Source: Eledone cirrhosa
Lineage: Eukaryota
Direction of reading: 5' to 3'
NCBI GenBank assembly: GCA_964016885.1
Contig: OZ024764.1
Location: forward strand, 22,134,001-22,198,000
DNA length: 64,000 bases
Shown: one piece after another, positions 9,874 to 61,195 of the stretch
Numbering within the stretch: the first letter of the stretch is position 1
How the letters are laid out: each line of letters opens with the position of its first letter
Translations under genes and position numbers: made by a program
The notes under the pieces: model-generated
The model's input: only the letters and a program-made list of their open reading frames with translations
The model's database searches: none
What the model was told of the DNA's origin: nothing

Positions 9874-11154
9874 ATGTCGAAAAATATAGTAAAATCACCA
9901 TTCCACTGTGATATCTGTGGTAAATCATTCTCTCGTAGTGATAACCTAACTACTCACAAACGTATTCATACAGGAGAGAAGCCATATCACTGTGATATCT
10001 GTGGTAAATCATTCAGTCGCAGTAATACCTTAACTAATCACAAACATATTCATACAGGAGAGAAGCCATATCACTGTGATATCTGTGGTAAATCATTCAG
10101 TCGCAGTAATACCTTAACTACTCACAAACGTATTCATACAGGAGAGAACCCATATCACTGTGATATCTGTGGTAAATCATTCACTTGTAGTCATCACCTA
10201 ACTACTCACAAACGTATTCATACAGGAGAGAAACCATATCACTGTGATATCTGTGGTAAATCATTCAGTGACAGTAGTAGCTTCAGAGTTCACAAACAAA
10301 TTCATACAGGAGAGAAACCATATCACTGTGACATCTGTGGTAAAACGTTCTCTAAAAACAATAGCGTAACTACTCACAAACGTTTTCATACAGGAGAGAA
10401 GCCATATCAATGTGACATCTGTGATAAATCATTCTCTCAAAGTAGTCACCTAACTACTCACAAACGTATTCATACAGGAGAGAAGACATATCAACGTGAG
10501 ATCGGTGATAAATCATTCAGTGACAGTAGTAGCTTCAGATTTCACGAACAAATTCATACAGGAGAGAAGCCACATCACTGTGACATCTGTGGTACATCAT
10601 TCAGTCACAAAAGTAACTTAACTACCCACAAACGTATTCATACAGGAGAGAAGCCATATCGGTGTGATATCTGTGGTAAATCATTCTCTCATAGCAATCA
10701 CCTAACTACCCACAAACGTATCCATACAGGAGAGAAGCCATATCAGTGTGTTATCTGTGGTAAATCATTCTCTCGTAATAACCTAACTACTCACAGACGT
10801 ATTCATACAGGAGAGAAACCATATCACTGTGATATCTGTGGTAAAACATTCACTAAAAATAATAACCTAACTACTCACAAACGTATTCATACAGGAGAGA
10901 ACCCATATCATTGTGATATCTGTGGTAAATCATTCTCTCAGAGTAATCAGCTAACTTCTCACAAACGTATTCATACAGGAGAGAAGCCATATCACTGTGA
11001 CATCTGTGGTAAATCATTCTCTCGTAGTAATCACCTAACTACTCACAAATGTATTCATACAGGAGAGAAGCCATATCACTGTAACATCTGTGGTAAATCA
11101 TTCTCTCATAGTGGTAACTTAACCAAGCATGTGCGTATTCATACAGAAGTTTAG
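9874..11154 (+). CDS. C2H2 zinc-finger protein 1 (15 finger units; finger 8 degenerate, finger 11 has a 1-aa deletion; no effector domain)
   Basis: 426-aa ORF of [17 protein letters not shown] repeats; upstream acceptor TTTCAG at 9662; AATAAA at 11418. Confidence 0.93.
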
Positions 11155-11799
11155 CTGTATCAATATCAAACTCATTACTACAACAACAACAACAATTGTG
11201 TAGATCCATCATCCTGGCTAAAACTGGGGTCAACCTTGTAGGTTTTACCTATGACAGGGATCATAAACACCAGGTTTCCATTTTTGAAGTAGTGTTTGAA
11301 GATTTTGTGTAAATTAAAGTTTTTCACATTAAACTTTGATTTATTATACTTTAACAGGTAAGATATATATTTGTATTTTTAGTAAAGGTTTGGGAACTTC
11401 TGTAATTTAAACCTGCCAATAAAATGAAAACTTTTGTTGTTGTTAGTCTGACATTGATATTAATTCTATTGTCCTGTACATTGTCTCAAATATCACAGAT
11501 TAAACAGATTTTAACAATAACAACAGAAGTCAATAACTTGTAAGCCTAATATCTAGCTTCCATTTTAACTATTTGATATTGTTGTTCCCCTCCTGTCTCT
11601 TCAGGTCTTTTAGATTTCAACTTCTATCTACTGTACTATTCCATCACCAAGGCAACATTCATCTGGCTGGCAGCTTACATCAACTACAGATCTCATCAGT
11701 GGTTCACAACAGGCTGTCTGAAAGAAACTTCCAGATATCTTCTATGTCATAGCTATCAATCTCCTCCTCCTTATCATATGTATCATGTAGAACATCTCT

Positions 11800-12450
11800 G
11801 AATTTATATTTAACAGGGAGATCTTTTACTGTCCCTACCCTTTTCTCTAGGTTGTCTTGTACCTCTCTCACAGTCCCTCTAGATCTTATATTTAACAGGG
11901 AAATCTTTTACTATCCCTACCCTTTTCTCTAGATTGTCTTGTACCAGTCTCACAGTCCCTCTCGATCTTATATTTAATAGGGAGATCTTTTACTGTCTCT
12001 ACCTCTTTCTCTAGGTTGTCTTGTACCTCTCTCACAGTCCCTCTAGATCTTATATTTAACAGGGAGATCTTTTACTGTCTCTACCCTTTTCTCTAGGTTG
12101 TCTTGTACCTCTCTCACGGTCCCTCTAGATCTTATATTTAACAGGGAGATCTTTTACTGTCTCTACCCTTTTCTCTAGGTTGTCTTGTACCTCTCTCACA
12201 GTCCCTCTAGATCTTATATTTAACAGGGAGATCTTTTACTGTCCCTACCCATTTCTCTAGGTTGTCTTGTATCTCTCTCACAGTTCCTCTATATCTTATA
12301 TTTAACAGGGAGATGTTTTACTCTCCCTACCCTTTTCTCTAGGTGGTGTTGTACCTCTCACAGTCCCTGTAGATGTTATATTTAACAGGGAGATTTTTAC
12401 TCTCCAACCCTTCTACAGATAGTCTTGTATCTGTCAGTCCCTCTAGATCT
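11800..12450. repeat. 82-bp minisatellite inside a minus-strand RTE remnant (shorter arrays at about 28075-28210, 43150-43400, 61820-62250)
   Basis: GATCTTATATTTAACAGGGAG recurs at 11882, 11964, 12046 and 12128. Confidence 0.9.
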
Positions 12451-12742
12451 TACACCTAGTATCTAGTCTATGTTGAGTGGTACGTCCTTCTCCAGTAAGG
12501 GAGTTAATATTCCCAACCATCTGTCTATCCTGTTTTCTGATGAGAATGAAGTCAAGCTAGTTTATCTCTTCACCTGATTGAAGTAACTAGATCAAGTAAC
12601 TAGATGTTTTCCTGTAAGTTAGTGTTGCAGTGTTTGTGTCACCATGTAAGGTTTATATCTATTAATATAGAGATGTAGTAAAGTTTTCACTGTTGTATCT
12701 CTATTTTCTAAATATCTTAATAATGTTTCTCTACTATTTCAG

Positions 12743-13111
12743 AATAGCACATGACCTTGGCAGAAAAGATTCTTTTAAAGACAACAGAAAGATGTTACAT
12801 ACAAGTGATATAAACTTGTTTAGTCTGTGGTGAATTATGGTGAAATATTTCTTCTGAATTGAGATAAATAACAACATATTCCTTTTTCACTGTCTGGAAT
12901 ATTTACAAGATGATTTTACATTCTGATTAAACTTTAGATATTTACAAAGGAGTTTTCAAAATATTTGGATATTGACAAAGATCACATTTGGTAAAAATTA
13001 TGAACAATAGAAATATTTACATCAACATAGGAATAATTTCCAGAAGAGATGGGAAAATCATTATACCACTGTAATATTTGTGGTAAAGTATTCTCTCTTC
13101 TTTATATGTAG
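12743..13111 (+). pseudogene. Ghost ZNF exon: acceptor, leader and a truncated half finger (copies at 28498-28865, 43676-44043, 62543-62904)
   Basis: Acceptor paralogous to the main exon acceptor; ATG 13049 reads [20 protein letters not shown]. Confidence 0.75.
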
Positions 13112-58825: not shown

Positions 58826-58895
58826 ATGTTAGTCAGCACATTCTTCACCAAGGAAGGCCTTAGTATTTATTACAGTCCATTTATCAATATAGAAA

Positions 58896-59266
58896 CAGAC
58901 ACCCGGATGTGGCGGATGCGCAAACTGAGCACACAACACACACATAGAAACAAAATGGTGTAGGACAGAAGAAAGGAAAGGCACAGAAACAAAGAAGGAA
59001 TCCCCAGTCACTGAAGAGGTCACAGAGTGTGTGACGAAAGGACTATGACTATATATAAACAACTATCTGGTTGTGGAACCAACCAACCAGAATTTATAAG
59101 TTTGTAGATTTGTAAATTTATAAATTTATAAATATATAATAAATTGAAGTGAAAGCAACTGGTGCGTGTGTTTCTTATTGGCAACATGACCCTCCCAAAG
59201 TATGACAATATCGGTTTCAACACACGATTTCAGATAAAGAAACTTGCTAAACAAATTCAGAAACGA
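58896..59266 (+). mobile_element. Penelope-like pLTR/retrozyme-type insertion
   Basis: Present only in unit 4; 10-bp TSD AATATAGAAA (58886-58895, 59267-59276); contains a hammerhead motif. Confidence 0.65.
59006..59050 (+). ncRNA. Minimal type I hammerhead ribozyme-like motif
   Basis: AGTCA-CTGAAGA-G-GTCACA(GAGTG)TGTGAC-GAAA-GGAC-TA^-TGACT. Confidence 0.65.
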
Positions 59267-60163
59267 AATATAGAAATATTATATGAAATTTGTACTGATG
59301 TATTACAAGTTTCTGAGTATCTTATAATGTTCTTTTATTATTTCAGAATACCAGAGGACATTGGCATTAAAGAGCACGTTACATCAGACATATCCTCAAT
59401 ATTAACCATTTCTAATGAAAGACACTACCCATCAATTTCAAATAATTTTGAAAACACTCAACACTTTGAAGGTATTTAGTAATATAAATAAATTTCTCAG
59501 TATTAAGCTACTCTTTGGAACATAACTTTGCACAATTTCATGAATTTATGGTGGAAAGTTTTTAGATACATATAAAGACTGGTATGAAAAAGATAAAACA
59601 CTTTTATATCAGGTGTTTCATCAACACCATTATTTAAAGATTAAAAGAAGCTGTTATACAGAACAGATACAACCTTGTTTATATAAATCTATGGGAGAAA
59701 TACTGGGAAATATTTCTTCTAAACTCAATAACACTTCTATTCTTTGCTGTCTGGAATATGTAGAAGATACAAAATAAAGCTGAAGAAATTTACACATGAT
59801 TTTGTAAGATCTTCATATATTGACAAAGATGATAGTAGATGGAACTACAGGAGTAGAAATATTTCCATTATTACAGGAATAACTAATCAAATAAAAACCA
59901 GAAAAATTAGATTCTTCACTGTCTGGAATATGTACAAGATGATTTTATATGTATATTAAACTTGAAGACATCTACAAAACAGTTTGTATCATCTTTAATT
60001 ATAAAGAAAGACCAAGTTGATGGAAATATATCTGGAGGAATATGTTTCAGGAATAATATTATAAACATAAAGAAGAAAAATATCCATATATTGACAGAAG
60101 AAAAATATTAAAACTGTGAATTATGTGAGAAACTGAGGTCATTGATATCTTTTAGTAGGAGTT

Positions 60164-61195
60164 ATGTCGAAAAATATAGTAAAATCACCATTCCACTGTG
60201 ATATCTGTAGTAAATCATTCTCTTGCAGAGATAGCTTAACTAATCACAAACGTATTCATACAGGAGAGAAGCCACATCACTGTGACATCTGTGGTAAATC
60301 ATTCTCTTGCAAAGATAGCTTAACTAATCACAAACGTATTCATACAGGAGAGAAGCCACATCACTGTGACATCTGTAGTAAATCATTCTCTTGCAGAGAT
60401 AGCTTAACTAATCACAAACGTATTCATACAGGAGAGAAGCCACAACACTGTGACATCTGTGGTAAATCATTCTCTTGCAGAGATAGCTTAACTACTCACA
60501 AACGTATTCATACAGGAGAGAAGCCATATCACTGTGATATCTGTGGTAAATCATTCGCTGACAGAAGTTGCTTAGCTACCCACAGACGTACTCATACAGG
60601 AGAGAAGCCATATCACTGTGACATCTGTGGTAAATCATTCTCTCGTAGTAATCACCTAACTATCCACAAACGTACTCATACAGGAGAGAAGCCATATCAC
60701 TGTGACATCTGCGGTAATTCATTCTCTCAGAGTAATCACCTAACTACTCACAAACGTATTCATACAGGAGAGAAGCCATATCACTGTGACATCTGTGGTA
60801 AATCATTCTCTCGTAGTAATCACCTAACTATCCACAAACGTACTCATACAGGAGAGAAGCCATATCACTGTGACATCTGTGGTAAATCATTCTCTCATAG
60901 TAATCTCCTAACTATCCACAAACGTACTCATACAGGAGAGAAGCCATATCACTGTGACATCTGTGGTAAATCATTCTCTCAAAGTAATCACCTAACTCTC
61001 CACAAACGTACTCATACAGGAGAGAAGCAATATCACTGTGACATCTGTGGTAAATCATTCTCTCATAGTAATAACCTAACTCTCCACAAACGTACTCATA
61101 CAGGAGAGAAGCCATATCACTGTGACATCTGTGGTAAATCATTCTCTCAAAGCGGTAACTTAACCAAGCATGTGCGTATTCATACAGAAGTTTAG
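60164..61195 (+). CDS. C2H2 zinc-finger protein 4 (12 intact fingers)
   Basis: 343-aa ORF; acceptor at 59346; same N- and C-termini as the paralogs. Confidence 0.93.

Follow-up and report, generated by a model that had tools for sequence, protein, structure and literature searches.

Probable diversifying selection at the DNA-contact codons of four young, finger-only zinc-finger genes in Eledone cirrhosa

A stretch of 64,000 nucleotides from the cephalopod Eledone cirrhosa (assembly GCA_964016885.1, contig OZ024764.1, positions 22,134,001 to 22,198,000 of the forward strand; hereafter the window, numbered from its first letter) carries four closely related C2H2 zinc-finger (ZNF) genes, Z1 to Z4, in which the codons predicted to contact DNA have changed faster than silent sites. 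In our reading, these genes are recent tandem duplicates of a finger-only gene, their arrays have diverged as fingers were duplicated, lost or swapped, and the four contact codons have changed likely through selection for new DNA specificities, which would most likely be aimed at young transposons. Taken as a whole this is the account we favour, with moderate confidence. The codon comparisons set out below make positive selection at the contact codons, in our judgement, highly probable; DNA binding by the encoded proteins is predicted.

Six-frame translation of the window confined C2H2 motifs to four plus-strand arrays, with open reading frames (ORFs) starting at 9874 (Z1), 26282 (Z2), 41227 (Z3) and 60164 (Z4). 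Each array is an 84-bp tandem repeat within one exon and encodes 12-15 fingers, with at least five C-x2-C-x12-H-x3-H units and TGEKP-type linkers per ORF, which places the genes in the tandem C2H2 class. An earlier note on this DNA, made from the letters alone, had described common termini, a common 84-bp scaffold and a set of helix words (RSDN, RSNT, CSHH, HSSN, KNTK, CRDS and others); indeed, every ORF opens with M-x-KNIVKS, every array closes with HVRIHTEV, and all of the listed words are present in the arrays. Self-comparison resolved four head-to-tail units of 15-19 kb each, whose shared non-repetitive parts are mostly 91-98% alike. Their unique, gap-free flanks differ at 13-21 of 676 aligned sites per pair of copies (1.9-3.1%), in keeping with the near-identical flanks that the note had reported, and the shared 3' flank (11155..11700, +; copies after 27564, 42501 and 61195) holds 21 changes in 473 four-way columns. 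With Z1 and Z2 flanks just 1.9% apart, a difference within the allelic divergence range of a diverse invertebrate, the four copies might in part be an assembly artefact, that is, uncollapsed haplotypes of fewer loci. We consider this very improbable, as the window contains no N, the four units stand head to tail and carry copy-specific insertions and repeat lengths, and a diploid has two alleles per locus. Pieces from sequencing run X5, labelled as another species, match the flanks with 0-6 letters different over 200-390 nt, so the unit is also present outside this assembly.

One comparison uses the last finger, which has a scaffold of its own and is anchored by the adjoining 3' flank (11074..11154, +, in Z1; counterparts at 27484-27564, 42421-42501 and 61115-61195). 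When the four copies are compared, 10 changes fall in the 21 nt of helix positions -1 to 6, where the flanks would predict 0.99 (Poisson p 1e-7); the remaining 60 nt hold a single change. Read by codon, the helix changes comprise eight replacements and two silent changes. The triplets of this finger, HSG, PCS, RRD and QSG, are not shared with any other finger in the window.

The arrays as a whole gave the same picture. In a codon model with fixed site classes, fitted on three trees of 50 distinct fingers, the ratio of non-synonymous to synonymous rates (dN/dS) at the contact codons was 2.62, 3.05 and 4.14 (p 2e-6 to 1e-14); the scaffold gave 0.51-0.72, and the zinc ligands, which are under purifying selection, gave 0. 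When the helix was given a silent rate of its own, the contact ratio was 2.0, 2.6 and 2.2 (p 0.006, 0.0003 and 0.0004). The result persists when Z3 is left out (3.2), when Z1, Z2 or Z4 is taken by itself, and for kappa values of 1-5 (1.98-3.36). A site model with no preset classes likewise preferred selection (M2a over M1a, p 3e-4), and its selected class consisted of positions -1, 2, 3 and 6 only, with posteriors of 1.0, 1.0, 0.94 and 0.90; the other 20 codons had posteriors of at most 0.10. None of 127 simulations with a neutral helix (51 without and 76 with conversion, at rates of 0, 0.1 and 1 per step, calibrated to approximately the observed pairwise distance of 0.19) reached the observed ratio of 2.79 or the likelihood-ratio test statistic of 27, the maxima being 2.33 and 10.7. 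In a tree-free count over 52 spanning-tree edges, 73 non-synonymous changes fell in contact codons. This is a 2.2-fold excess over the overall silent rate (p 1e-6), and such counts as a whole gave excesses of 1.75- to 2.2-fold. Removal of CpG-type changes left p 2e-4 for the full edge set, and CpG mutability as the cause was therefore rejected for the full set, though not for the closest 29 edges. The helix thus outpaces both the scaffold and the flanks, the comparison on which the earlier note had staked its proposal of diversifying selection. Our literature search, which did not extend to supplements or to most subscription papers, turned up no earlier dN/dS test on the fingers of cephalopods.

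Several observations weigh against selection and have to be set beside these results. Silent changes are themselves more frequent in contact codons than in the scaffold (pS 0.118 versus 0.056 on the spanning-tree edges), and because of this roughly twofold difference the ratio pN/pS within contact codons alone is only about 1.3 (edges) or 1.26 (all pairs). With a tree built from the scaffold alone, the silent rate of the helix comes out 2.9-fold higher. This raised rate, together with the two silent changes in the last finger, suggests that older helix segments have been imported from other fingers. If only the 29 closest edges are counted, little excess is left (p 0.04, or p 0.13 without CpG-type changes), and Z3 alone is not significant once the helix has its separate rate (p 0.25). 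Tree-based dN/dS is described as unreliable on converting fingers in the available text of PMC5519329, and our simulated conversion was uniform and drew on one finger pool. An explanation without positive selection can be built from these points: the helix would be under no constraint, and the genome would hold a large pool of fingers differing only in their helices, from which conversion would bring in old helix variants while keeping the scaffold uniform. The decay of several copies would fit, as would the great number of similar fingers elsewhere: over most bins of the array, the contig depth summed for run X1 is tens of times the depth at the 5' flank, a figure that is not a copy number. 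We nevertheless regard neutral import as rather improbable. The site model picks out exactly -1, 2, 3 and 6 and leaves the intervening +1, +4 and +5 near 1, which is unexpected if whole segments were imported; dN/dS is at least 2 even against the helix's own silent rate; and neither the neutral simulations nor the triplets of the last finger, unique within the window, sit easily with it.

Selection at contact codons is one of two processes by which these arrays appear to change, the other being turnover of whole fingers. On average, fingers differ from one another by 27-46% in helix codons -2 to 6 and by 7-13% elsewhere. Among the 53 fingers scored (Z1 F8, Z1 F11, Z3 F9 and Z3 F10, the four damaged fingers in all, were excluded), the nearest relative lay in the same gene for 24 and in another gene for 24, with five ties. 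The split by gene was uneven: the nearest finger belonged to the same gene for 0/13 in Z1, 4/15 in Z2, 11/13 in Z3 and 9/12 in Z4, and because nearest fingers are mostly same-gene in the latter two, the Z3 and Z4 arrays appear to have been largely rebuilt via internal finger duplication. Six Z3 fingers at 41254-41760 have a common altered tail, mostly with a TEEKP linker instead of TGEKP, and the tail and the linker spread jointly by internal duplication. Z1 and Z2 are mosaics of common blocks of 148-310 nt in differing order; for example, three shared fingers run C (F4)-D (F5)-K (F6) in Z1 and K (F9)-C (F10)-D (F11) in Z2, bearing out the shuffled order that the note had seen, and block duplication plus loss would explain the change. 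Many fingers common to Z1 and Z2 retain their helix, those with RSDN, RSNT and DSSS differing by 0-2 nt, and differences between genes therefore seem to be made more by whole-finger replacement than by point change. The description of the helices as rewritten consequently overstates point substitution.

What stands in front of the fingers bears on how such proteins could work. A Pfam search of the four proteins (best 25 families each) returned no KRAB-, SCAN-, ZAD- or FiNZ-type N-terminal domain, and the 150 upstream plus-strand stop-free stretches of at least 40 aa gave no Pfam match to KRAB, SCAN, ZAD, BTB or SET, a search that leaves room for FiNZ, undescribed domains or exons of fewer than 40 codons. 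Within these limits the earlier statement that KRAB, SCAN and ZAD are lacking was upheld. The upstream stretches instead matched remnants of reverse transcriptase (RT), endonuclease and PHD families, with low-complexity matches to a 39-bp minisatellite. Finger 1 is preceded by only 9 residues and, as exon 1 is non-coding and no upstream domain was found, the predicted proteins consist of 9 residues plus fingers.

The Z1 gene reaches about 4.6 kb upstream of the start given in the earlier note. A promoter region with a non-coding first exon lies at 5060..5277 (+), with a GT donor after 5277 and a motif at 5174 that we take to be NRF1-like; no ATG is present within 5183-5277, the part of exon 1 examined. 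This promoter-like block with its donor exists in three copies, the others being at 20364..20582 (+, donor 20582) in Z2 and 49232..49453 (+, donor 49453) in Z4. The splice acceptor is common to all four genes, with exon 2 starting at 9663, 26076, 40760 and 59347. From there to the ATG, the leader measures 211 nt in Z1 (9663..9873, +, with two short upstream ORFs), 206 nt in Z2, 467 nt in Z3 and 817 nt in Z4 (59347..60163, +), and contains 2, 2, 7 and 15 upstream ATGs, respectively. The 5' leaders thus differ among the copies, although the note had called the untranslated regions (UTRs) shared.

We aligned four public sequencing runs over 5000-11800, that is, over Z1 only, and looked for splice joints. 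A contig of run X4, the type of which is unrecorded, joins 5277 to 9663 with GT..AG ends at a depth of 170; the joint is absent from the other three runs. Against its reading as a Z1 transcript, a contig of equal depth has the Z2/Z4-type letter at 9698, so the spliced transcript is not assignable to Z1; moreover, extra letters between the two sides of the joint are possible, and X4 is not recorded as RNA. A candidate intron in the 3' UTR, about 200 nt after the stop (donor 11357, acceptor 11604, a pair kept in all four copies), is not claimed, as X4 contigs are unspliced there and no joint of 11357 to 11604 appears among the 15 joints listed of 292. The Z4 leader in part resembles decayed coding sequence: it contains an open stretch of 77 aa and, ahead of the ATG, what looks like the remnant of a finger. 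The idea that it is a decayed effector domain was unsupported by protein, Pfam or Atlas searches: the 77-aa stretch had no match among 1.84 billion representatives, and read-through of the leader in three frames gave no Pfam match, and Atlas scores were at most 0.78.

The four copies are in different states of repair. Z1 (9874..11154, +) encodes 426 aa with 15 finger units, of which F8 lacks both Cys and F11 is one codon short. The Z2 array (26282..27564, +) also has 15 units; an apparent 1-nt frameshift after finger 12, near 27305, puts F13-F15 out of frame and yields a predicted 360-aa protein of 12 fingers (stop at 27362-27364). By eye, the out-of-frame tail resembles the tails of the annotated Octopus proteins P0224 and P0136. 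The Z3 ORF (41227..42501, +; 424 aa) has KNTK fingers homogenised within the gene and degenerate F9-F10. Homology of its unit ends at 35082 and restarts at 39253, and in place of the promoter, exon 1 and 5' intron stands a replacement sequence (35083..39252, no strand assigned) with transposase-like and long interspersed nuclear element (LINE) remnants; because the promoter and exon 1 are lost, Z3 is probably silent. Z4 (60164..61195, +; 343 aa) has 12 intact fingers, four of CRDS/CKDS type followed by an xSNH-type run. The cluster acts as a birth-and-death nursery, in which Z1 and Z4 have each retained a promoter and an open frame and Z2 is shortened.

The neighbourhood is rich in repeats and mobile elements. 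Directly upstream of the Z1 unit, positions 1-1784 (+) match the 3' part of 28S rRNA (Rfam RF02543, 843 bits), followed to about 4030 by GC-rich spacer-like repeats of 88, 107 and 196 bp; the cluster may lie at the edge of a ribosomal DNA (rDNA) array or beside an orphan rDNA copy. Intron 1 of Z1 and of Z4, and no other, holds a remnant of a retrotransposon without long terminal repeats (non-LTR; about 6400-8300 and 50600-53950, +) with PHD and RT Pfam matches, the Z1 version lacking 1.4 kb and the Z4 version showing a restriction-like endonuclease motif at 53462-53920; we presume it to be CRE/SLACS-like. Upstream of the arrays, copy-specific LINE insertions occur in Z2 (21856-25190, +, endonuclease-RT-PHD), in Z3 (35713-36790, -, a fragment 72% similar to the Z2 element) and in Z4 (55709-57337, -, with a 543-aa open RT frame). 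A DNA-transposon remnant at 15900-17525 (-) with a Spin-doc zinc finger (PF18658), presumably hAT-like, has a partial copy at about 32340-33400 that was duplicated with the unit. A broken transposase-like reading at 35083-35370 (+), which we assume from its motif to be Tc1/mariner, starts exactly where the Z3 promoter is lost and has no Pfam match. The 39-bp intronic minisatellite is found in Z1 (9300-9518, 5.6 copies), Z3 (39930-40615, 17.6) and Z4 (57473-58821, 34.6); no copy is listed in Z2, where 256 bp of the acceptor region are duplicated (25573-26090). The downstream 82-, 48- and 71-bp repeats vary in copy number too.

By scaffold, the relatives of these genes are cephalopod. When 232 fetched multi-finger proteins, a biased homolog list rather than the species' own ZNFs, were ranked by scaffold match, the five best were from Octopus, with values of 0.81-0.89 against a median of 0.49, as were 10 of the best 14; the highest identities in an N-terminal search (83, 81, 78 and 78%) were all Octopus proteins. 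Vertebrate ZNFs predominate among the best 120 of 7997 matches in a whole-protein homolog search. The genes very likely belong to the cephalopod expansion (PMC9068888), as the earlier note's reference to large clustered C2H2 expansions had anticipated, and the available text of the papers on these expansions (PMC9068888, PMC12513265, PMC10547256) describes clustered tandem C2H2 genes with the same scaffold as Z1-Z4. What those texts offer are counts, expression, predicted binding to transposable elements (TEs) and positional entropy, to which the present test of contact codons adds dN/dS.

Comparable systems are known elsewhere. From what we have of PMC6444547, the hemipteran ZF271-like/APEZ genes are, like Z1-Z4, zinc-finger-only genes without KRAB or any further domain, in tandem clusters (of 4-8 genes, mostly expressed) with pseudogenes and array shuffling, but they are an independent insect expansion, for which the text at hand gives no selection test on contact codons. 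The zebrafish FiNZ-ZNFs and tetrapod KRAB-ZNFs, as portrayed in the portions of PMC10547256 at hand, resemble Z1-Z4 in being young paralogs whose base-contacting residues show positive selection, and TE repression is demonstrated for the FiNZ-ZNFs; both groups carry an N-terminal accessory domain, whereas none was found in Z1-Z4, whose first exon is non-coding. The Z genes evolve like KRAB- and FiNZ-ZNFs, with dN/dS above 1 at the base-contacting residues of young paralogs. The earlier note had called the turnover PRDM9-like, which is moderately apt for the dynamics of the arrays: in the sections of PMC5519329 we could consult, PRDM9 has a minisatellite-like 84-bp array, contact-residue diversity and within-gene homogenisation of the kind seen in Z3 and Z4. 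The Z genes are not PRDM9, however. They form a multi-copy cluster and lack the KRAB-SSXRD-PR/SET region ahead of the PRDM9 array; their fingers, unlike those of PRDM9, are only 81-85% identical in DNA. The contact share of amino-acid diversity is 0.44, 0.36, 0.31 and 0.51 in Z1 to Z4 over four sites (0.22-0.40 over three sites). For PRDM9 the values are 0.69 in human, 0.91 in mouse and 0.33-1.0 across complete orthologs (PMC5519329, Table 1, where the site set may differ from ours). Among the biased list of 232 proteins, 1 exceeds Z4 in contact share, 16 exceed Z1, 28 Z2 and 64 Z3; Z4 is the only one of the four to stand out.

How the arrays change and what they are aimed at can be sketched as follows. 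Unequal crossing-over and conversion in the 84-bp repeat would generate novel orders and runs of fingers, selection would favour point changes in the contact codons, and copies no longer useful would decay. A protein without an effector domain might still repress its target by steric block or through partners that bind the fingers. Young transposons are the targets we would favour, because turnover is fast and a link across species has been published: the number of ZNFs follows that of retroelements across animals, and Octopus ZNFs have predicted TE binding and high entropy at contact residues, dN/dS being tested in zebrafish only in the available text (PMC10547256). The ZNF-versus-transposon argument is likewise made in the text seen of PMC12988792. 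A more specific version, a cephalopod arms race in which finger-only proteins would be re-targeted to young transposons within about 2-3% neutral divergence through PRDM9-style turnover and silence them without a KRAB-like domain, is tentative and in our view falls well short of probable. It is less likely still that selection for specificity is real and the targets are host regulatory DNA, such as neural enhancers, or satellite or meiotic sequences. Every selection result fits such targets equally, and the expanded C2H2 genes of cephalopods show expression in nervous tissue and fall into different co-expression modules, according to the accessible part of PMC12513265, which stresses neural expression and terms the arms race an open question. 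Turnover this fast, in four copies whose flanks have diverged by 2-3% and of which one has lost its promoter and another is frameshifted, would suit a moving target better than stable developmental enhancers, and the relation between ZNF and retroelement numbers also weighs against host targets.

Whether the C2H2 expansion of cephalopods serves neural regulation or transposon control is a question held open in the texts available to us of PMC12513265 and PMC12988792. Mammals and fish show the pattern described here, and insects have clusters of effector-less genes. To a specialist the finding would be expected and hardly a surprise. To this question the locus brings a codon-level signal of probable diversifying selection at exactly the DNA-contact positions of very young paralogs, together with a mapped, effector-less gene structure in which Z1 and Z4 form a small, concrete set for binding assays.

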